Shown: piece by piece, positions 1-62,319 of the stretch
Layout: each line of letters opens with the position of its first letter
Position numbering within the stretch: position 1 is the first letter of the stretch
Sequence record: PZ386958.1
DNA: 64,000 bases
Direction: 5' to 3' (one strand)
Source of the DNA: a phage
Notes under the pieces: generated by a model
Seen by the model: the letters and a program-made list of their open reading frames with translations, nothing else
Databases searched by the model: none
What the model was told of the DNA's origin: nothing
Made by a program: the position numbers and the translations under genes

Positions 1-1602
1 ATGGACTTAAATGCTGTTAAGCAGAAGCGAGTGGAAGATGTTAGGAAAGTCCTAGCTGGAGAGTTGGGGCTTTCTGATGAAGTAAAAGAAATTATCAAAT
101 CATTCGGTAAAGACCCCTCTAAATTCCTTCCAACTCAAATTCTGACTTTATTAAGATACACACCAGACCAAGTTAGGCTTATCTTCAAATTGATGACTGA
201 TAAGAACTATGTAGCCCCTCAGCCGGGTTCTCAAGAGGTGTTTTTAAATACTAATGCTGACTTGGTTCTTTATGGTGGTGCTGCTGGTGCTGGTAAAACT
301 GCTGCATTGTTAATGGACTCTTTAAGATTTATTGAAGACCCTAACTATAATGCTGTATATTTCCGTCGAAATACAACACAGTTACAAGGTGGTTTATGGC
401 CTGCTGCAAAGAAACTATTTGGTAAGTTTGGTGGGATTCCTCACGAGCAGAAAATGACTATCACATTCCCTTCTGGGGCAACTATCAAGTTCACCTACCT
501 AGAACTTGAAAAGCACGCTGAAGGTCATCAGGGTATTGAATACTCAGCTATTTACTTTGACGAAGGTACACACTTCTCTGCTTCACAGATTTCATACCTA
601 CAGACCCGTCTACGTTCTGGTGCTGAAGGTGATTCATACATGAAGATTTCTATGAACCCAGATAGAGACCACTTCATTTATGATTGGGTAGAGCCATTCT
701 TAGATGAAGAAGGTTATCCAGACCCTGAAAAGTGTGGTCGTATTCGTTGGTATGTAATGAACGATGGTGTGATGGTTTCTGATTGGGAGAGAGATAAGAT
801 TCTTGAAATGTTCCCTCTTGAGATTCCTCAAACATACACCTTTATCTCTGGTACGATTGATGATAACCCAATCCTTGACTTCTTAGAGCCTAAGTACCGT
901 GGTAAGTTGGAAAACAACACCCCTGTAAACGTTGCAAGACTTCGTTTCGGTAACTGGAAGGCTCGTGCAGAAGGTTCAAACTATTGGCAAAGACAGTGGT
1001 GTGAGATTGTTGATTCACTCCCAGAAGATGTATTTGATGTCAGAGCATGGGACTTAGCAGCAACTTTACCATCTGAGATTAACCCTAATCCAGACTGGAC
1101 AGCGGGTGTTAAGATGGGTAAATCTAAAAAAGACGGTTGCTATTATATCATTGATGTAGTAAGATTTAGAGATAGACCCTCTGGAGTCGAAACACAAATT
1201 AATTTGACTGCTGAAAGTGACGGTAAGCGAACTGGTATTTTTATCCCTCAAGACCCAGGCGCTGCTGGTAAATCCTACGCAACATCCCTCATAAGGAAAC
1301 TTGCCGAGAAAGGCTATCGTGCAAGAGCTAAACCAACAAATAAAGATAAAGTTACCCGCTTTGCGGGATTTTCTGCTGCTTCTGAAGCTGGACTTGTAAA
1401 AGTCTTGAGAGGTAGTTGGAATGAAGCTTATTTTCAAGAGCTTGAAGGCTTTTGTGGTGATGGCAAAACTAAAGATGACCAAGTGGATGCTACCAGTGAT
1501 GCTTTCAACAGTCTTAACGAAGTTAAATTATTCAAGCCACCATCAATGGGTGCTCACACAGACTTAGTGAGAGGAAACCCATATGAGGGGCTTAGACGTT
1601 GA
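1..1602 (+). CDS. terminase large subunit (ATPase/nuclease); may begin upstream of window
   Basis: Walker A-like YGGAAGAGKT near the N-terminus; 533 aa; lies directly upstream of the portal-sized gene. Confidence 0.75.
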   Translation: MDLNAVKQKRVEDVRKVLAGELGLSDEVKEIIKSFGKDPSKFLPTQILTLLRYTPDQVRLIFKLMTDKNYVAPQPGSQEVFLNTNADLVLYGGAAGAGKTAALLMDSLRFIEDPNYNAVYFRRNTTQLQGGLWPAAKKLFGKFGGIPHEQKMTITFPSGATIKFTYLELEKHAEGHQGIEYSAIYFDEGTHFSASQISYLQTRLRSGAEGDSYMKISMNPDRDHFIYDWVEPFLDEEGYPDPEKCGRIRWYVMNDGVMVSDWERDKILEMFPLEIPQTYTFISGTIDDNPILDFLEPKYRGKLENNTPVNVARLRFGNWKARAEGSNYWQRQWCEIVDSLPEDVFDVRAWDLAATLPSEINPNPDWTAGVKMGKSKKDGCYYIIDVVRFRDRPSGVETQINLTAESDGKRTGIFIPQDPGAAGKSYATSLIRKLAEKGYRARAKPTNKDKVTRFAGFSAASEAGLVKVLRGSWNEAYFQELEGFCGDGKTKDDQVDATSDAFNSLNEVKLFKPPSMGAHTDLVRGNPYEGLRR

Positions 1603-54085: not shown

Positions 54086-54111
54086 AGGCTCCTACGGGAG
54101 CCTTTTTAATT
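54086..54111 (+). terminator. rho-independent terminator
   Basis: AGGCTCC TACG GGAGCCT then TTTTAATTT. Confidence 0.6.
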
Positions 54112-54646: not shown

Positions 54647-57013
54647 ATGCGCATGGTAAACGACCACGCAGAAGTGATTAAGAGTTCAACTTCTTTAGAG
54701 ACGTCTCAAGCACAGATTACAATGACACCTGAAATGTTCAGCCTTTTGAGTTCTGGTGTATATACCTTTAAAGAAAGGGCAGTGATTCGTGAACTGTCAT
54801 GTAACGCAGTAGATGCTCAGAAAGAAGCTGGAAAAGAGAATATTCCGTTCCATGTGCATTTACCTACTCGTTTTGAACCTTACTTTGAAGTCCGTGATTT
54901 TGGAACTGGATTGACTCATGATAAAGTTATGAGTTTGTACCTAAACTACGGGGCTTCTACGAAGAATGACTCTAATGACTACATTGGTGCAATGGGTATC
55001 GGCTCAAAATCACCATTTGCAATTGCTCAGTCATTCACAGTGTCTAGCTATGTTGACGGTGTTGTTAATAAGTACTCTGTTTATCTTGAGAATGGTATCC
55101 CTCAAGTAACTAAACTGACCACTAACCCAACAAAAGAACCTAATGGTTTAGCTGTACGTGTAGCAGTTGCTGACCACCGTATCTCAAAGTTCTTTGAAGA
55201 AGCTGGTCATGTATACTCATACTTTGCTGTAAAACCAGAAAGTAATATCGAGTATGATGATGTATTAGCAGATATGAATGTCATTGCCCGTGAAGAAGGT
55301 GTTTATGATGCCATGATTCATAAGCAAAGCTGGCGTTCTAGTGGTAACAGGACAGAGTTTAACGTGGTAATGGGTAACATTGCCTATCCAGTGAATATGG
55401 AAGCATTACTTGGTGATGATTTCTTCAAAGTATTGCCAGAATTTTTCCGTAGGAGCGTAGACCTTGTAAACATATACATGCCTATTGGTTCAGTTGCTAT
55501 CGCAGCTTCTCGTGAAGCATTGCAGATGAATGACACGACAAAAAATGTTATCATCGAGGCTACTAAAAAGATAACTGAAGCAATTACAAAGGATGTTATC
55601 AAGAAAGTTAACAGTCAACCTACACTCATGGATGCTGCACAGGCTTATGCTGAGTTACGTTTGAACTCACGAGAGATGTTTAATGCTGTGTGTCCAAAGC
55701 TAGAGTGGGGAGGCGTTAAGCTTGATTCTCTGGAAGAAGAATTGCTAAACATTCGTCGTGGAATTATCTACGCAGAAGACGGCTCAGTCATCTATGAACG
55801 TGATGGTAAGGGTAATATTAAGGTTGACAGCAAAGGAAACAATATCCCTAAAGTTGACTACCTATACAATCCAGTTGCTTATGTTAAGTTTAACTCTTTA
55901 GAGAGTAAGATTCGTGCAACAGCACTTTCCTACACTCAAGAGGCGAGCATGTTCAATATCTTTGGTGCAATGCGTAAAAGCCAAATTGAACAGTTTTTGT
56001 TCGTGATTAATGACCGTCGCAATAAAAACGGTACTGAGAAGACTGTAGGCCGCAATCAGATTCTGCGTGGTGCATGTCGAGACTACGCCAGTGAGTCCAG
56101 TCTGTTTCACAGATATAATGGTATTGTGTTTGTATTCTCGACTGAAAAAGAGTTAGATGATTTAATCAATCTACACAAACTTGATAAAAGCTTGCTAAAG
56201 ATTGTGAAAATGTCTGATAAGGAACACCATTACCAGCGTAAAGAAGCTGTAAGAGGTGTTGTAAAACTCTGGAAAGCTGTTCCAGCAGAAGGTGTAGCCT
56301 CCTACAAAGAGGTGTCAGAGGACTTAGACACAATTGAAGAACCTCAGCTTTACATTAAGGCAATTGGTGACACAGTTGATGGTGAATGTTTTTGCTCATC
56401 CCCAGAAGATGTAGCTAAGTCAGTTGCTAATGTTATTGGAAAGACAGTCTATGTTTTCCGAAAAGCAAATTGGAAAAAGATACCAGAAGACTGGATTGAA
56501 GTAGATGAGAAGCTCTTGAACGACAGCTTAACTGATGTTCATTGGATTAATCATAACAGGTATATGACACGCATCTACATGAATGGTGTTCTTGACCTTA
56601 CAAGTAGCTGGATTATTGCCAGAAACTTTACATTCAATAATAGGAAGATTTCTCGTGGTTATTGCTATTCACGGGATACAAACAAAACTATCTTCCTAGA
56701 AGGTAATGAAGAGGCTGTAGAGGCAATGTTCGGTAAAATCCAATACGTTGCTGCACCGTTTGCATACACTTACACTGTTAGTAGATTGCAAACTTTGAAA
56801 GAATGCCTTGACAATGATACAAAGCTGTACAAGAAAATTAAGAAAGCTGGTGACCGTATGGTCATTAAGGTGACAAACTATCTTTCAAAAAGAAAACAAG
56901 AAAACTTCTTGCTTTCTCATTTAGATTGGAATAAAGTGTCACCCATCGAAGTGAGTAAGTTCTTAGGTTTTGATGTGAAGTGTGTTCCAGAGGGGACTAC
57001 AATTTACGATTAA
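54647..57013 (+). CDS. rIIA: rIIA-like protein (GHKL/HATPase-type ATPase domain)
   Basis: GHKL boxes IRELSCNAVDA, VRDFGTGL, NDYIGAMGIGSKSPF in the order seen in T4 rIIA; 788 aa; followed by rIIB. Confidence 0.8.
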   Translation: MRMVNDHAEVIKSSTSLETSQAQITMTPEMFSLLSSGVYTFKERAVIRELSCNAVDAQKEAGKENIPFHVHLPTRFEPYFEVRDFGTGLTHDKVMSLYLNYGASTKNDSNDYIGAMGIGSKSPFAIAQSFTVSSYVDGVVNKYSVYLENGIPQVTKLTTNPTKEPNGLAVRVAVADHRISKFFEEAGHVYSYFAVKPESNIEYDDVLADMNVIAREEGVYDAMIHKQSWRSSGNRTEFNVVMGNIAYPVNMEALLGDDFFKVLPEFFRRSVDLVNIYMPIGSVAIAASREALQMNDTTKNVIIEATKKITEAITKDVIKKVNSQPTLMDAAQAYAELRLNSREMFNAVCPKLEWGGVKLDSLEEELLNIRRGIIYAEDGSVIYERDGKGNIKVDSKGNNIPKVDYLYNPVAYVKFNSLESKIRATALSYTQEASMFNIFGAMRKSQIEQFLFVINDRRNKNGTEKTVGRNQILRGACRDYASESSLFHRYNGIVFVFSTEKELDDLINLHKLDKSLLKIVKMSDKEHHYQRKEAVRGVVKLWKAVPAEGVASYKEVSEDLDTIEEPQLYIKAIGDTVDGECFCSSPEDVAKSVANVIGKTVYVFRKANWKKIPEDWIEVDEKLLNDSLTDVHWINHNRYMTRIYMNGVLDLTSSWIIARNFTFNNRKISRGYCYSRDTNKTIFLEGNEEAVEAMFGKIQYVAAPFAYTYTVSRLQTLKECLDNDTKLYKKIKKAGDRMVIKVTNYLSKRKQENFLLSHLDWNKVSPIEVSKFLGFDVKCVPEGTTIYD

Positions 57014-57095: not shown

Positions 57096-58205
57096 ATGAC
57101 TACTAAAACTAAAGCACAGATTGACGCAGAAATTTACAAACTGGTTAAAGAAGGCAAGCTGACTAAAACAGCTATTGCACAGAAGTTCAATACTTCAACC
57201 CGTTCAGTTGGTCGTGCTGTAGAGCGTCATGAAGCAACCTTAAAGGGTAAGAAAAAGGCAACTTCTACACCAGCTACGAAGACTTTGAAACAAGTTGCTA
57301 AGACTTTTAAAAAGAAAGCTGGCAAACCAGTTGAAAAGGTTGTTAAAGATGCTGTACAGAAAGCTCCAGTAAATAAACTGCATGAAGCTATGCAGAATGG
57401 CGACCAGATTGAGTACATGATTACTGGTGACTCTGTTATCATGACTTTCGGTGCAGATTCTGAAATTGTTGAATCTACCCATCCGAACTACAAAGAAATC
57501 GTGATGGCTGTTGTATCCGGTGAGTATAAGAAAGCTTTCGAACTGATGAACATTCGTAAGTCTATCGAAAACTTCACTCAGGGTGCTATCACCATCAAAG
57601 GTGACAAGTTATTCTACGGTGCTGTTGAGATGCGTTCTACTCTGGTTGACCGTATTCTTCACATGATGAAGACTGGAGATAAAGGTTTTGAACGCCTTGT
57701 GATGTTCTTCGAAAAACTGATGGAAAACCCATCTAAAGATTCTGTAGAACAACTTTGGGGATTCGTATCTCACCTTGATGTTGAAATTGATGAAGAAGGT
57801 TACATCATTGGTTGGAAGAAAGTCTCTACTCATGAAGGCAAGCTGGTTGACTCCCACACCTACAGAGTACCTAATGATTTGGGTAACATTGTAGAAATGC
57901 CACGTTGGATGGTTGATAATAACCGTAACGTGACTTGCTCTCAGGGTCTTCACGTTGGTGCTTGGGATTATGTTCGTTGCTTCTCAGGTGATACAATCCT
58001 GAAGGTTCGTGTCCATCCACGAGATGTTGTATCTGTTCCAACTGATTACAACGATATGAAGATGCGTTCGTCTCGTTATGAAGTTGCAGCAATCGTTGAT
58101 AATCAACGTAAAGTGCTGAAAGAATGGGATGGCAAGACTGAAGCTTTGCATGTCATCGTTGGCACTGCTGGTGAACTAATCTCCCAACGTAAACGTGAAA
58201 TCTAA
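57096..58205 (+). CDS. rIIB: rIIB-like protein
   Basis: N-terminal pattern AEIYKLVKEGKLTKTAIAQKFNTSTRSVGRAVERHEA resembles the T4 rIIB N-terminus; immediately follows rIIA. Confidence 0.7.
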   Translation: MTTKTKAQIDAEIYKLVKEGKLTKTAIAQKFNTSTRSVGRAVERHEATLKGKKKATSTPATKTLKQVAKTFKKKAGKPVEKVVKDAVQKAPVNKLHEAMQNGDQIEYMITGDSVIMTFGADSEIVESTHPNYKEIVMAVVSGEYKKAFELMNIRKSIENFTQGAITIKGDKLFYGAVEMRSTLVDRILHMMKTGDKGFERLVMFFEKLMENPSKDSVEQLWGFVSHLDVEIDEEGYIIGWKKVSTHEGKLVDSHTYRVPNDLGNIVEMPRWMVDNNRNVTCSQGLHVGAWDYVRCFSGDTILKVRVHPRDVVSVPTDYNDMKMRSSRYEVAAIVDNQRKVLKEWDGKTEALHVIVGTAGELISQRKREI

Positions 58206-58220
58206 TAAGTAATTTCTTAA

Positions 58221-58245
58221 AAGGCTGCTTCGGCGGCCTTTTTTA
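58221..58245 (+). terminator. rho-independent terminator
   Basis: GGCTGC TTCG GCGGCC stem (one G-U) then TTTTTT. Confidence 0.6.
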
Positions 58246-58246
58246 T

Positions 58247-58274
58247 TTGTATTTTGTGCAGAGTGCTGTATAAT
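58247..58274 (+). promoter_or_regulatory. sigma70-like promoter (TTGTAT-16-TATAAT)
   Basis: Perfect TATAAT at 58269-58274 preceded by TG-containing GCTG; TTGTAT 16 nt upstream. Confidence 0.5.
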
Positions 58275-58305
58275 TGTTGTCACGATAAACTAAACAGGAG
58301 AACCA

Positions 58306-58854
58306 ATGAAGAAATTGATTCTAGGTTTGTGCTTAATGTTTACAGCACACTTATCTTATGCAGTTGACTGCCCAGAGCTATCAATTAGTCAAAAAGTAAA
58401 CATGTTAAAAGCTTACCAGTATGGTGAGAATAACATGGGCAAAGGTTGGGGTATCACTCTAGCTGCTATAGCCTTACAAGAGTCAGAGTTAGGTCTGAAG
58501 GTAGAGAATAAAAAGACACATGATTATGGTATTTTCCAGAATCACTTGAAGACTGTTGTAAAGCGTAACAAAATTAGTCCTAATGTGGCTAAAAAGAAAC
58601 TTTTAAAAGACTTTGACTATGCTGCGAAGGAAACCCACAAAGAACTTGAGTTTTGGACAAAGGTGCATGGTCAGCCAAAGTCAAAGAAAACTTTACAAAA
58701 AGTTTTAGCATCATATAATGCTGGGTATTCGTACAGAATCCCTAAAGCTAAGAAATATTCTCAAGATGTTTATAACAACATGAAAGTTATTGCCCAATGT
58801 GAATTTGCAACAAACATTTCTAAGGTAAACCATGAAAAAATTAAGAAAGTCTGA
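58306..58854 (+). CDS. secreted lytic transglycosylase-like protein (SLT domain; endolysin candidate)
   Basis: Signal peptide MKKLILGLCLMFTAHLSYA; SLT-like motifs AIALQESELG, YGIFQ, SYNAGYSY. Confidence 0.5.
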   Translation: MKKLILGLCLMFTAHLSYAVDCPELSISQKVNMLKAYQYGENNMGKGWGITLAAIALQESELGLKVENKKTHDYGIFQNHLKTVVKRNKISPNVAKKKLLKDFDYAAKETHKELEFWTKVHGQPKSKKTLQKVLASYNAGYSYRIPKAKKYSQDVYNNMKVIAQCEFATNISKVNHEKIKKV

Positions 58855-59527
58855 TGAAGTATTGTGCCATGCTTATGACTTGCATCCTCATGAGTTAGGT
58901 CTTGATTCCTGTGTATGGACTCCAGAACAGTGTAGGGATTTTGAAGACACCGCAAGAGAAGTTGTATGCTCACTTGAAGAGTTCCACACATCAGAACCAA
59001 TTGTGAACGTTGTGGACAAAGAGACTGGACAATCCATAGGTGTAAAACGTGACAGTTTAGTCATAGTCAATAAAGACCTTGTAGAAAAAGGGAATCTTAT
59101 CTTAGCAGATATTGATGGTGTTCTTACAAATTTTAATCACGAAGATTGTTCAACAGAATTGACTGATGGTTCATTTTCACAGTACACTAATCTTCTTGAC
59201 TCTGTAAGAGCAAAACCAACGTATGTTTTCAATATCATTGATGCAATTGCTAATCATGCTGCTGTTGGACTCTTGACAGCCAGAGGTGATTCTCAGAGAA
59301 TACCTACTGAGATGTTCTTGAGGCACAATATAGAGCATGATTACATGCTTTTTATGCGTGGTTTTGGAACTAACTCTCTAAGTGCAGAAAGTTTAAAAGT
59401 GAGGATGATTCAGTCTTGCATTCTTCCTTACTTTAATATAGTATGTTTTATAGAAGATACAGAGAAGAATGTTCAGAAGGTAAACAGAATCCTTCCACAC
59501 ATCAAAACCATGTTAGTTAAACATTGA
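58832..59527 (+). CDS. hypothetical protein with HAD-like DxDG motif
   Basis: ILADIDGVLTNFNHED resembles HAD phosphatase motif I; otherwise unassigned. Confidence 0.3.
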   Translation: MKKLRKSDEVLCHAYDLHPHELGLDSCVWTPEQCRDFEDTAREVVCSLEEFHTSEPIVNVVDKETGQSIGVKRDSLVIVNKDLVEKGNLILADIDGVLTNFNHEDCSTELTDGSFSQYTNLLDSVRAKPTYVFNIIDAIANHAAVGLLTARGDSQRIPTEMFLRHNIEHDYMLFMRGFGTNSLSAESLKVRMIQSCILPYFNIVCFIEDTEKNVQKVNRILPHIKTMLVKH

Positions 59528-59537
59528 GAGAAAACTT

Positions 59538-60002
59538 ATGAACAATATCATTACGGTAGCACTGGACGTTACGGAAAACAAATCTGAAGTAGTTCGTAAC
59601 ATTATCAAGAGCAACTTTGAGGGTAAAATCTTCCGCGCTGTCAATGTAAAAGCAGACGGCAATATCCGAGAGTATCGTGCTCTTCTGAATGTTAAGAAAC
59701 ACGTCAAAGGTGCTGGTTCAACGACAGCACACAAAGAAAATTTGATGACAATCTATGATATGGGTATGGCTTCAGAGTTAGGTGCTGAAGGTATCGTTAA
59801 AGAAGGTGCTCCGTATCGCTCTTTCAATCTGGAAACTGCTCTTATGCTTTCCTTTACAAGTGGTTCTAAAACAACTACTTATCTCTTTACTGATGCTGCA
59901 ACGGTATCTGCTATTAAGGATAGCACTGTCAAAGCTGGGGTAGCTGCTGCTGCAAAAGCTTCTTCGATGGCTGCAAATGTCCTTGCTAAAGTCCTCAGTT
60001 AA
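59538..60002 (+). CDS. hypothetical protein
   Basis: 154 aa ORF with Ala-rich C-terminus; terminator follows. Confidence 0.35.
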   Translation: MNNIITVALDVTENKSEVVRNIIKSNFEGKIFRAVNVKADGNIREYRALLNVKKHVKGAGSTTAHKENLMTIYDMGMASELGAEGIVKEGAPYRSFNLETALMLSFTSGSKTTTYLFTDAATVSAIKDSTVKAGVAAAAKASSMAANVLAKVLS

Positions 60003-60013
60003 GGTTAAGATAC

Positions 60014-60036
60014 AGGCTCCTTCGGGAGCCTTTTTA
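60014..60036 (+). terminator. rho-independent terminator
   Basis: AGGCTCC TTCG GGAGCCT then TTTTT; identical to the hairpin at 61768. Confidence 0.65.
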
Positions 60037-60053
60037 AATTTCAAGGAGTATTA

Positions 60054-60938
60054 ATGAAACCAATGTTCAAATATCTTGGTGGTAAAACAAGAATATTAAA
60101 AGAGTATGAGCGTTTAGGTGTCTTTCCAGACAACTGTAAAAACTTCTATGACCTGTTTTCAGGTGGTGGTTCAGTAGCTATCTGGGCTTATAACAGATAC
60201 CCAGAGGCAAAAGTGTTTATTAATGAGATAAATAAACATATTATAGGTCTTTACACAACTTTCAGAGATGACTATGAAAACTTCATGGAAGAATTTGAGT
60301 ACTTGTCAAAGAGGTACTTAGCCTTACCTATGCAGGAAGAGTATGCCGTGAAAGGCCAGCGTCATAACCGTCTACGCTATAAAATGTATTACAGTGTAAG
60401 AGAAGAACTTCTTTTGCTTGGTGAAGAAGGAACATATGACTACAGGTACTATGCCAGACAGTTTTTCCTTCAAAAACTAAGTTTTGGTGGAGTATGGCAG
60501 ACTACTAAAGAGATGAGAGGTCACTATGCAACACCTTGTGGGTATTTACTGGAAGAAGAGATTTTCTTCACAAAAACTAAAAAATCACTATCCGAGTTTT
60601 ACAGTTTTATCACCGATGAAAGGGTAATACTTAGCAGTGAACCTTATGACAGGGTTGACATAAAACATGGAGAAGACACAGTTATTTACTGTGACCCTCC
60701 ATATATCAACACCAACCAGAAATATGGTGTAAAGTTTGACATTGAGATGTCTGTAAAATTATGCGAAGATATGGTTTCTTGGGGGGAGTTAGGCTCTAAA
60801 GTTTTGATGTCAAACTCTCAGTGGGATGGATGGGCAAACCTAATTCCTGAAAATTTTAACTTGACAGAGGTTAGTCATTCATACACAATACATGCACAGA
60901 GAAGCAAAGATATTAGCGAAGTAATTATTCACAACTAA
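60054..60938 (+). CDS. dam: DNA adenine methyltransferase (Dam family)
   Basis: N-terminal KYLGGKTR and FSGGGSV, catalytic DPPY motif (CDPPYINT); 294 aa. Confidence 0.8.
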   Translation: MKPMFKYLGGKTRILKEYERLGVFPDNCKNFYDLFSGGGSVAIWAYNRYPEAKVFINEINKHIIGLYTTFRDDYENFMEEFEYLSKRYLALPMQEEYAVKGQRHNRLRYKMYYSVREELLLLGEEGTYDYRYYARQFFLQKLSFGGVWQTTKEMRGHYATPCGYLLEEEIFFTKTKKSLSEFYSFITDERVILSSEPYDRVDIKHGEDTVIYCDPPYINTNQKYGVKFDIEMSVKLCEDMVSWGELGSKVLMSNSQWDGWANLIPENFNLTEVSHSYTIHAQRSKDISEVIIHN

Positions 60939-60949
60939 GGTATCAAGTT

Positions 60950-61762
60950 ATGGCAAACAGCATCAATGTAGCACTGAATGGCAAGGTTGTTAAAATTCAC
61001 ACTAAGATTATCAGTGTCGAGGATTTTCTTAATGAAAAACGTTACAAAGAAAACCCTCGTCAACGAAATACACTTAAGCGTCTGAAAAGCAAACACCTTA
61101 ATGGTGACGTATCACCAGACCAAACAGTAGTTCATGTGGCTAAGTTCGGTAGTTCACTGTTCATCATTGATGGGCACTCACGTCGAGAGGCATGGAAAGT
61201 TGGTAACCTGACACGACCAGAAAACTTGATTGCAGTTATATACCATGTGAACTCCATATTGGATGTCACAGATTTGTACACTCATTTTGACTCTGAGTTA
61301 GCAAGAGAAAAACCTTCAGAAGTTTATTACGGAAATATGAAGATGATTTCTTTCAACCCAGAGTCAGAACTGATGAAAGCATCTTGGGCAACTGCTATTA
61401 AGTATGTTGCTGCATATTACGGTGTGCAACAAGTCTCTAACACTGAAACAGTTAAATACCTTAATGACTTTAAAAATGAGCTGGAACAAATTGATTCTCT
61501 TGAAGTACAGCTTAAAGGTGTAGTAAACGCAAAACGGAAGTATTCTTCTGGGATTCGTGCAGCAATGTTAATTACACTACGCCTATATGGTGATGCTGCA
61601 TTTTCCTTTTGGGAAGACTATAATGACTACTGTGAAGGTATGTCTAACAAATATGTTACAGAGGCATACCAACTTGCATTACAAGCTGGTCGCGGAGCAC
61701 AGGCTGATAAGTTGTTGATGAATCAAGCGATTTCACTTGTCAACTATTACAGTCAAGAATAA
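60950..61762 (+). CDS. ParB-like nuclease domain protein (putative)
   Basis: FIIDGHSRREAW matches the ParB N-terminal domain core (IDGHHR-like); follows Dam. Confidence 0.5.
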   Translation: MANSINVALNGKVVKIHTKIISVEDFLNEKRYKENPRQRNTLKRLKSKHLNGDVSPDQTVVHVAKFGSSLFIIDGHSRREAWKVGNLTRPENLIAVIYHVNSILDVTDLYTHFDSELAREKPSEVYYGNMKMISFNPESELMKASWATAIKYVAAYYGVQQVSNTETVKYLNDFKNELEQIDSLEVQLKGVVNAKRKYSSGIRAAMLITLRLYGDAAFSFWEDYNDYCEGMSNKYVTEAYQLALQAGRGAQADKLLMNQAISLVNYYSQE

Positions 61763-61767
61763 TACAC

Positions 61768-61790
61768 AGGCTCCTTCGGGAGCCTTTTTC
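61768..61790 (+). terminator. rho-independent terminator
   Basis: AGGCTCC TTCG GGAGCCT then TTTTC. Confidence 0.65.
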
Positions 61791-61808: not shown

Positions 61809-62156
61809 ATGACATTTAAAGAGTTCTGTCAAGCTACTTTCATAATTGTTTTCTTAGTTGGTGCAGGTGTCTGGGGAGGATACTCTTACAGAGACTATCA
61901 AGTTGCTGAAACTGAGCTAAACAATCAAAAGCTCATAAGTGTTGCTAAAGATGCTTATCAGGAAGGATTAGTTACACTGAGCACCAATTACAAAAATGAT
62001 TTGAAAGATGTGCTTGCTAAGAATAAGCATACAAAAGAGGTACTAACATATGAAAAAACTAAGCCAGAGTTTTATAATGTTTGTGTTACTGATAACTATG
62101 TCAGGGTGTTCAACGAACAAAGTGAGCAGTACATTCAAAAACTCCCAAGTAAGTGA
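61809..62156 (+). CDS. i-spanin-like protein (type II membrane protein)
   Basis: N-terminal TM segment FIIVFLVGAGVWGGY followed by a charged periplasmic portion; 3' end overlaps a lipoprotein gene in another frame. Confidence 0.4.
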   Translation: MTFKEFCQATFIIVFLVGAGVWGGYSYRDYQVAETELNNQKLISVAKDAYQEGLVTLSTNYKNDLKDVLAKNKHTKEVLTYEKTKPEFYNVCVTDNYVRVFNEQSEQYIQKLPSK

Positions 62157-62319
62157 GAGCGATAAGTACACTCAAGAAGAATCACGGTATATCATCAAAG
62201 GCAACACAGGCAGCGATGTAGCAGCAGCCCTTGAGTTCTATCGTGACGGCTTTTACCAGTGCACAATCAAAGCTAATAACCTTATTGATATGATTTTATT
62301 AGGAAACAAACAGCAATGA
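62050..62319 (+). CDS. o-spanin-like outer-membrane lipoprotein
   Basis: Lipoprotein-type signal MKKLSQSFIMFVLLITMSGC with Cys at 20; start embedded in the 3' end of the i-spanin-like gene. Confidence 0.4.
   Translation: MKKLSQSFIMFVLLITMSGCSTNKVSSTFKNSQVSESDKYTQEESRYIIKGNTGSDVAAALEFYRDGFYQCTIKANNLIDMILLGNKQQ

Follow-up and report, generated by a model that had tools for sequence, protein, structure and literature searches.

The DNA analysed here, a 64,000-nt stretch of the phage sequence record PZ386958.1 (hereafter, the window), carries on its + strand a pair of genes at 60054-61762. The upstream open reading frame (ORF), ORF1, encodes a divergent adenine DNA methyltransferase and the downstream one, ORF2, belongs to an unannotated phage protein family; together they lie between two identical terminator-like hairpins (Table 1). 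Felixounavirus (Felix O1-like) regions match the 2.7 kb around this cassette at 91-98% identity, namely those of Salmonella phages HMD-P8 and SP116 and E. coli phages JLBYU28, tootiki, and REP5. GenBank already contains the two genes, named 'DNA methyltransferase' and 'hypothetical protein'. A preliminary description of the locus had presented them as a Dam-family enzyme with a DPPY motif, followed by a 270-aa protein in which FIIDGHSRREAW was taken to indicate a ParB-like nuclease domain, the pair being bracketed by identical AGGCTCCTTCGGGAGCCTTTTT terminators. All of these elements were found at the positions given for them. The observation is thus confirmed, and the interpretation attached to it is partly supported, as set out below.

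ORF1, whose ATG follows an AAGGAG ribosome-binding site, matched the D12 methyltransferase family PF02086 over the entire profile (positions 1-253 of 253 on aa 7-279), with 84.8 bits against a cut-off of 22 (E = 1e-23); it also matched phrog_56 and the PADLOC model MTase_II (E = 5e-30). Its motifs follow the order of the alpha group, with FxGxG in the N-terminal and DPPY in the C-terminal part. Among solved structures, ORF1 matched 7m6b only (E = 6.5e-8), apart from a marginal match to E. coli Dam 2g1p (E = 0.39). With motifs I and IV both intact, ORF1 is, as judged from its sequence, a bona fide D12-class methyltransferase. The superfamily part of the 'Dam-family' label therefore held, whereas membership of Dam proper did not: ORF1 fell below the Dam cut-off of NCBIfam (TIGR00571, 99.9 vs 114.85 bits) and far below that of the E. 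coli Dam equivalog (NF008152, 24.6 bits vs a cut-off of 441). An orthologue of ORF1 is named 'putative Dam family' methyltransferase in GenBank records. In the Dam-DNA structure, Arg124 of the recognition hairpin of E. coli Dam has a role in GATC recognition; in the weak HMMER alignment of ORF1 to 2g1p (E = 0.39) this position is occupied by Gln, beside a 2-residue insertion. Outside the Felix-like phages, the nearest phage relatives of ORF1 are D12 enzymes of cyanophages and Mydovirus, at ~28-30% identity. The target motif of ORF1 could not be deduced from these relatives, from 7m6b, whose specificity is unnamed, or from k-mer statistics.

The checks proposed in the preliminary description presuppose that the enzyme methylates GATC in the phage DNA, and this presupposition failed. 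The window contains no GATC at all, against ~207 sites expected under a maximal-order Markov model, and none lies in the cassette. The complete 87,510-bp genome of the cassette-bearing phage SP116 likewise has 0 sites vs ~292 expected, and GATC is also absent from L079, a divergent Felix-like contig that carries the cassette. Since there are zero substrate sites, GATC methylation of phage DNA is not the function of ORF1, and a GATC-specific Dam role on the phage's own DNA is excluded. The hosts of Felix-like phages are, besides, already Dam+. Because the phage DNA lacks GATC, the DpnI/MboI digestion suggested earlier as a check, with unmethylated GATC as the refuting outcome, is uninformative here. 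ORF1 is remote from Dam and resides in a genome without GATC, and its specificity therefore probably differs from GATC. Other sites are depleted in SP116 as well (CCWGG, 6 vs 94 expected; GGWCC, 7 vs 48), and 25/64 six-base palindromes are absent; the target sites of host Dam and Dcm are both avoided, besides restriction sites. That the genus has no MboI/GATC sites has been reported before (PMC5477317, PMC4690856).

ORF2 consists of two parts, a basic N-terminal region of ~aa 1-120 (pI 9.5) and an acidic C-terminal region (pI 5.3). The ParB N-terminal match that had been attributed to it was not recovered by any sequence method. Searches of Pfam (E <= 1), NCBIfam, and PADLOC with ORF2 were all negative, so that it matched no nuclease family or restriction enzyme in these collections and no helix-turn-helix (HTH) domain in Pfam; in PHROG it matched the unknown-function phrog_2615 only. 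The HMM search proposed in the preliminary description accordingly returned no ParB model: PF02195, DndB, and DUF262 matched neither ORF2 (E <= 1) nor any of 149 family representatives (E <= 0.01). A profile of the family found nothing in the Protein Data Bank (PDB) at E <= 10, and phmmer likewise found nothing credible; PDB matches to de novo TIM barrels were discarded as repeats of one short chance match. When the family profile was aligned by hhalign with B. subtilis ParB, the ParB sequence having been checked as identical to 6sdk, the probability was 0.5%.

The family itself proved large. A word-indexed homologue search yielded near-identical proteins only, for ORF1 as for ORF2. When 1.84 billion cluster representatives were scanned exhaustively with HMMER, 502 relatives of ORF2 were retrieved at E <= 1e-3, 163 of them at E <= 1e-10, which sets the size of the family at a minimum of 502 clusters at the 50% identity level. 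Its consensus reads DNPxQRDT ... KLDGHTRxxLW ... LYxxFD(N/S)xxAxET. R78 is invariant, R39, D74, G75, H76, W82, Y110, D114, D182, and F220 are conserved in at least 90% of members, and DGH[ST]R is present in 134 of the 149 representatives. Because the Pfam ParB model fails to detect these proteins, the family lies outside surveys seeded with PF02195.

In contrast to the sequence methods, structure prediction supported the ParB assignment at the level of the fold. An AlphaFold2 model of ORF2, computed with the family alignment as input, was confident, with a mean predicted local distance difference test score (pLDDT) of 95.6 and a predicted template modelling score (pTM) of 0.84. In a Foldseek search of the PDB with this model, ranks 1-9 were all ParB or ParB-like PadC: the best match was the B. 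subtilis ParB-CDP complex 6sdk (E = 1.2e-3, probability 1.0), and M. xanthus ParB, C. crescentus ParB, and PadC were among the others, with sulfiredoxin following weakly at rank 11 (E = 0.72, probability 0.69). The scores against ParB are modest and rest on a predicted structure. A fold search among viral models retrieved, at full length, family members of the V1VFA-S type and those of IME338, Syn19, P-RSM4, Ro1, and BIS47; the next matches were proteins annotated as ParB-like, DndB-like ('DNA-sulfur modification-associated'), and GmrSD-N/DUF262.

In the ORF2 model, DGHSR (aa 74-78) covers the transition from strand 69-74 to helix 76-84, the place taken by GERRxR in ParB, and is preceded by NPRQR much as NPYQPR precedes GERRxR in ParB. 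This correspondence to the nucleotide-binding Boxes I and II of ParB is one of pattern and position, the alignment not being significant, and Box III of ParB (ENLQR) has no clear counterpart in ORF2. Judging from the model, the N-terminal ~120 residues probably fold in the ParB/Srx manner and carry motifs that resemble Boxes I and II. The C-terminal domain of ~150 aa is family-specific, acidic, and predicted to be all-helical. The term 'nuclease domain', as applied to ORF2 earlier, is a Pfam name and not a finding. Which nucleoside triphosphate (NTP) a ParB fold accepts (CTP, ATP, or GTP) is not predictable from sequence (PMC12704722). We also considered a partition ParB of the ParABS type and rejected it: the complete SP116 genome has no annotated ParA, ORF2 has no HTH, and the cassette-bearing phage is virulent. 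The genes around ORF2 encode polynucleotide kinase, a 154-aa protein, the methyltransferase, and spanins, with no ParA ATPase among them.

The two genes form a discrete unit, as had been proposed. The 22-mer AGGCTCCTTCGGGAGCCTTTTT occurs in exactly 2 copies, where 100 shuffles gave an expectation of 0; each copy folds into a hairpin made of a 7-bp stem and a UUCG loop, with a U-run (-13.0 kcal/mol), and was also found in the terminator scan. An empty site is preserved in phage VSe11, in which the 154-aa gene is followed by a single terminator and the spanin gene. At this junction the left flank of copy 1 is fused to the right flank of copy 2, and the spacing of the repeats is 1,754 bp. Because VSe11 keeps one terminator joining the outer flanks, the cassette is an exact 1,754-bp indel, and its presence/absence polymorphism falls exactly at the hairpin repeat. 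Near-copies of AGGCTCCTTCGGGAGCCTTTTT begin at 54086 and 58222. Near-identical hairpins of the form GGCUnCUUCGGnnGCC plus a U-run (54086-54107, 58222-58243, and the two at the cassette) mark borders of early-gene modules, and the GGCUnCUUCGGnnGCC hairpins appear to be recombination points for the gain and loss of accessory genes. No promoter-like site was seen in the 18 nt separating the left hairpin and ORF1, and the cassette is therefore presumably expressed by read-through from upstream.

The cassette is an accessory element of limited occurrence. Only 14 of 258 related records covered at least 80% of the 2.7-kb query, and most matched the flanks only. Searching at >=95% identity gave 14 records with ORF2, and at >=80% identity 15 with ORF1; both genes occur together in 14 Felix-like records, the methyltransferase alone in 1 (phage ESCO56), and ORF2 alone in 0. 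In ESCO56 (L003 8590-8743), an internal deletion extends from the ORF2 start codon to ~95 nt before its stop. Phage IME338 (L002 6205-6363) holds an unrelated 52-aa ORF at the cassette site, which identifies the site after the terminator of the 154-aa gene as an insertion hot-spot.

Both genes are under strong purifying selection. The divergent contig L079 carries this cassette, together with its two hairpins, at the corresponding site, at protein identities of 72% for ORF1 and 87% for ORF2 compared with 58-89% for the flanking genes. Against L079, where dS was saturated, the ratio of nonsynonymous to synonymous divergence (dN/dS) amounted to 0.08 in ORF1 and 0.035 in ORF2, and ORF2 was by this measure the most constrained gene of the neighbourhood. 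Given its identical location and its divergence in L079, the cassette is old in the Felix-like gene pool. A recent foreign acquisition was rejected, as the GC content of the cassette is in line with that of its flanks, the cassette lacks GATC, and its divergence from L079 is at least that of the flanks.

In several phage lineages, relatives of ORF2 lie directly beside DNA methyltransferases, which belong to four Pfam families. The partner is a D12 enzyme in the window and in L079. A D12 methyltransferase is also found in Mydovirus Ro1/BIS47, where a family member (hhalign probability 97.3%) lies directly upstream of it, the opposite of the gene order in the window. Some Felix-like phages have, in addition, a second cassette, composed of a PF02384-like methyltransferase, an ORF2 paralogue of 27% identity, and a 77-aa ORF; in the three copies inspected it lies between rIIB and an SLT-like gene and is flanked by UUCG-hairpin terminators. 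This paralogue was found in ten Felix-like phages, and the window has none, the interval 58206-58305 being empty. In freshwater phage contigs a PF01555 methylase directly follows the family gene; a methylase lies two genes from the family member in S-CAM4, and an MT-A70 enzyme four genes away in contig L017. In the T4-like cyanophage Syn19 (L027 1565-4032), a family member comes directly after a beta-class methylase, which itself follows a gene annotated as R.RsaI-like endonuclease; this trio may be a phage-borne restriction-modification (RM) system with a ParB-fold protein attached. An ancestral two-gene module of the Syn19 type was rejected, the Syn19 methylase being of another class and not homologous to ORF1 over its full length, whereas the gene beside it is a relative of ORF2.

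This association was quantified in IMG/VR, where the survey comprised 45 loci in 27 clusters at 50% identity and 31 representative loci were scanned. ORFs of at least 95 aa located no more than two genes from the family member were compared with more distant ORFs of the same loci. DNA methyltransferases accounted for 9/92 near ORFs and for 1/126 of the distal ORFs listed (Fisher p = 0.002, or 0.02 when two unlisted methylases are allowed for). The commonest neighbouring Pfam family was PF01555 (N6_N4_Mtase), with 7/92 ORFs, all immediately downstream; the remaining two were a PF05869 Dam, which in L035 lies immediately upstream, and a C5 methylase. A recurrent three-gene layout has a ~455-aa SNF2/Helicase_C protein, the ORF2-family protein, and a ~320-aa N6_N4 methyltransferase, whose overlapping start and stop codons suggest an operon-like module. 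The idea that a methylase and a ParB-like protein are meaningfully paired, already voiced in the preliminary description, gains from these data, since relatives of ORF2 recur beside several unrelated methyltransferase classes. Other genes recur beside the family too. A metallophosphoesterase directly follows the family gene in two unrelated phages (L004 3357-5386, Rhizobium phage V1VFA-S, and L032 3378-5347), and a DUF3102 protein does so in the early regions of two unrelated temperate phages (L010, L019-L021).

We tentatively favour a reading in which ORF2 is an NTP-binding accessory factor for the neighbouring methyltransferase, carried in an optional early cassette. Set between two genus-typical UUCG-hairpin terminators, the cassette would be transcribed by read-through from upstream, and ORF1 would methylate phage DNA at a non-GATC target. 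ORF2 would bind nucleotide through its NPxQR and DGHxR motifs and would engage DNA and/or the methyltransferase, in trans, as an activator, loader, or targeting subunit. Newly replicated phage DNA could in this way be methylated fast enough to evade host restriction. By analogy, the cassette would be a two-gene equivalent of the phage ParB-methyltransferase fusions and of the ParB-like activators of thymine dioxygenases, and the activity of ORF2 at the family level would be broader than methyltransferases alone. A Felixounavirus has been described as 'remarkably sensitive' to RM systems (PMC8594841), and an accessory methyltransferase would for that reason be beneficial.

Several observations weigh against an accessory role of this kind. 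Fusions of the ORF2 family to a methyltransferase numbered 0 among the 149 representatives. Roughly a quarter to a third of the family's contexts, and no more, have an adjacent methyltransferase, and the other neighbours are metallophosphoesterases, DUF3102 proteins, SNF2 helicases, or nothing recognisable. Several of the PF01555-adjacent contigs share one helicase-family-methylase layout, so that their independence is doubtful. A Kolesnikvirus member (369 aa, probability 98.6%) lies amid ribonucleotide-reductase genes with no adjacent methyltransferase, which argues that the core activity of the family is not methyltransferase-specific. ESCO56 retains the D12 methyltransferase without an intact ORF2; it also has the paralogue cassette, and its paralogue might replace the deleted ORF2. 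What the analysis shows directly are the gene identities at superfamily or fold level, the limits of the cassette, the purifying selection, and the repeated proximity to methyltransferases; NTP binding, a physical or functional coupling of ORF2 to ORF1, the methylated motif, and an anti-restriction benefit are inferred.

The same facts bear on the alternatives. That ORF1 and ORF2 are independent cargo sharing a hot-spot is rather unlikely; ORF2 would then act as a DNA-binding protein dependent on NTP, a regulator, or a nickase, directed at the DNA of the host, of a competitor, or of the phage, or at a defence system. Such independence would suit the majority of family members, which have other genes rather than a methyltransferase next to them, the unrelated ORF of IME338 at the same accessory site, and the solitary methyltransferase of ESCO56. 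It accords poorly with the enrichment of methyltransferases over the same-locus control and with their recurrence in non-homologous classes and in both gene orders. Nor would it account for the finding that in Felix-like phages ORF2 never occurs without ORF1, or for the close spacing of the two genes, which are separated by 11 nt and lack a promoter-like site of their own. Also unlikely, in our estimate, is a more general role in which the ORF2 family constitutes a nucleotide-gated DNA clamp or adaptor, acting as a class-independent activator or processivity factor of methyltransferases; slow orphan methyltransferases (D12, N6_Mtase, N6_N4, PF05869) would with its help fully methylate replicating phage DNA.

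We regard as quite improbable an RM-like selfish module in which ORF2, as a ParB-type nuclease, would cut DNA that lacks the ORF1 mark, be it host DNA or that of co-infecting cassette-less relatives, while ORF1 protected the carrier. The unit does behave as a discrete mobile module, its losses fit RM decay, with a methyltransferase-only state existing and an ORF2-only state absent, and the Syn19 family member stands beside an R.RsaI-like endonuclease and a methylase. Certain ParB domains, e.g. those of Bce_0392 and Osa, are moreover cited in PMC5512222 as nicking DNA. The ParB-domain nuclease activities reported there are, however, sequence-nonspecific (PMC5512222), and Pfam, PADLOC, and NCBIfam detected no nuclease family in ORF2. 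Many members lack a nearby methyltransferase, and a methylation-sensitive nuclease would be self-lethal in such phages; Syn19, for its part, already has a separate endonuclease. A conventional type II RM system is opposed by PADLOC and Pfam, which detect the methyltransferase alone and no restriction endonuclease beside ORF1. Extremely improbable is the literal reading of the locus as a GATC-specific Dam that methylates the phage genome beside a ParB nuclease. The D12/Dam-family HMM matches, the DPPY motif, and the 'putative Dam family' name of the orthologue speak for it. They are outweighed by the absence of GATC from the window, the cassette, the SP116 genome, and L079, as reported for the genus, by Dam+ hosts, by scores under the Dam cut-offs, and by the Gln at the Arg124 position in the weak Dam alignment.

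Three points are new here: a fold is assigned to a family that had no annotation and comprises at least 502 clusters; this family is associated with phage methyltransferases irrespective of their class; and, paradoxically, a 'Dam-family' enzyme is encoded in a GATC-free genome. Phage orphan methyltransferases are usually regarded as self-sufficient. If ORF2 is indeed an accessory factor, a helper acting in trans on several methyltransferase classes would alter the annotation and engineering of anti-restriction and epigenetic systems, and the regulation of DNA-modifying enzymes by ParB folds would extend from dioxygenases to methyltransferases. If the family were a general clamp, 'methyltransferase + ParB-fold helper' would be a widespread two-component anti-restriction module. 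The locus also carries a caution: 'Dam family' does not equal 'GATC methylation', and this genus has purged GATC completely. The cassette can be tested easily, as phages tootiki and JLBYU28 carry it and grow on E. coli K-12.

By the annotation of SP116, the cassette neighbourhood belongs to the early left genome arm, and its features are collected in Table 1. The 154-aa gene upstream of the left hairpin has only a faint WYL_2/SH3-like Pfam match (E = 0.15) and is under high constraint (dN/dS 0.08 vs L079). The spanin pair (61809-62319) lies in this early region, and the endolysin is annotated far away in SP116. Two records named 'Campylobacter phage A132/A126' (MG065664.1, MG065668.1) are 97.5% identical to the enterobacterial Felix-like region here; they have no annotation, one is just 43 kb, and they look mislabelled or contaminated.

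Table 1. Features of the cassette, its surroundings in the window, and related loci in other records.
Feature	Record	Position (nt)	Residues (aa)	Strand	Remark
rIIA	window	54647-57013
rIIB	window	57096-58205			followed by SLT-like 182-aa gene
Polynucleotide kinase	window	58832-59527
154-aa gene	window	59538-60002			phrog_2267 (unknown function)
Left terminator-like hairpin	window	60014-60035		+	AGGCTCC-UUCG-GGAGCCT + T5; left direct-repeat copy
Accessory unit	window	60036-61789		+	ORF1 + ORF2 + one terminator copy; 1,754 bp
ORF1	window	60054-60938	294 in all	+	divergent D12-class (alpha-group) N6-adenine DNA methyltransferase
ORF1 motif I, FSGGGS	window	60156-60173	35-40	+	binding of S-adenosylmethionine (AdoMet); aligns with GGG motif of 7m6b
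ORF1 motif IV, DPPY	window	60693-60704	214-217	+	catalytic; aligns with DPPY of 2g1p and 7m6b
ORF2	window	60950-61762	270 in all	+	unannotated phage family; starts 11 nt past ORF1 stop
ORF2 Box I-like motif, NPRQR	window	61052-61066	35-39	+	compare NPYQPR of B. subtilis ParB
ORF2 Box II-like motif, FIIDGHSRREAW	window	61160-61195	71-82	+	strand-to-helix junction
Right terminator-like hairpin	window	61768-61789		+	same sequence as left copy
i-spanin	window	61809-62156			phrog_1152, Rz-like spanin; next gene after right hairpin
o-spanin	window	62050-62319			overlaps i-spanin gene
Second (paralogue) cassette	L002	2331-4368
Second (paralogue) cassette	L003	3833-5868
Second (paralogue) cassette	L028	2426-4455
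Three-gene layout (SNF2, ORF2 family, methyltransferase)	L039-L044, L054-L056, L071, L075, L076				IMG/VR contigs

Among known systems, ParB-CTPase folds (PF02195) are often fused to N6_N4 and other methyltransferases and are enriched in phages (PMC12704722). The fusions of phages and prophages, in which an N-terminal ParB domain precedes an N6_N4_Mtase or Methyltransf_23 domain (as in B. cereus Bce_0392), resemble the cassette in joining a ParB/Srx fold to an adenine methyltransferase, and both belong to phage early or accessory regions with a presumed anti-defence role (PMC12704722, PMC5512222). The ParB domain of the ParB-methylase Bce_0392 is cited in PMC5512222 as nicking DNA. Unlike the fusions, the cassette comprises two genes; its ORF2 has a helical C-terminal domain of its own (~150 aa) and gives no PF02195 match, and the ORF2 family pairs with at least four methyltransferase families. 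To the DndB/DUF262 branch (N-terminal parts of GmrS and BrxU) ORF2 bears a resemblance at the fold level only, with no Pfam or NCBIfam match; unlike in those systems, a nuclease domain is not fused to it, and dnd, ssp, and dpd genes are absent from its surroundings. DpdB, another member of the ParB/Srx superfamily, partners DpdA in 7-deazaguanine DNA modification.

The Dam enzymes of T4/T2, P1, and E. coli share with ORF1 the D12/alpha-group layout, and the phage enzymes among them are, like ORF1, phage-encoded with no cognate endonuclease; unlike the case of E. coli Dam, to which its similarity is only remote, the genome of ORF1 is without GATC substrate. The cassette as a unit recalls the PeSL elements, stem-loop-flanked mobile gene cassettes that Arbiol et al. 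reportedly described in T4-type phages in 2010. Both consist of accessory genes in an early hyperplastic region with repeated hairpins as potential recombination substrates; in contrast to PeSL elements, the cassette is bounded by repeats that are terminator hairpins, no promoter being evident, and its mobility is putative. The closest parallel to the proposed role of ORF2 comes from dioxygenases. Stand-alone phage ParB-like proteins activate their cognate 5-methylpyrimidine (thymine) dioxygenases (5mYOX) on double-stranded DNA (dsDNA; O'Toole et al. 2026, PMC13229309). Like the cassette, these 5mYOX/ParB pairs place a stand-alone ParB-like gene beside a post-replicative DNA-modifying enzyme, and the ParB-like protein was shown there to be required in trans on dsDNA (PMC13229309). 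Their partner is a dioxygenase, whereas that of ORF2 is an S-adenosylmethionine-dependent methyltransferase. Likened to the cassette by gene layout and predicted fold, the 5mYOX/ParB pairs would be the best mechanistic precedent for ORF2.

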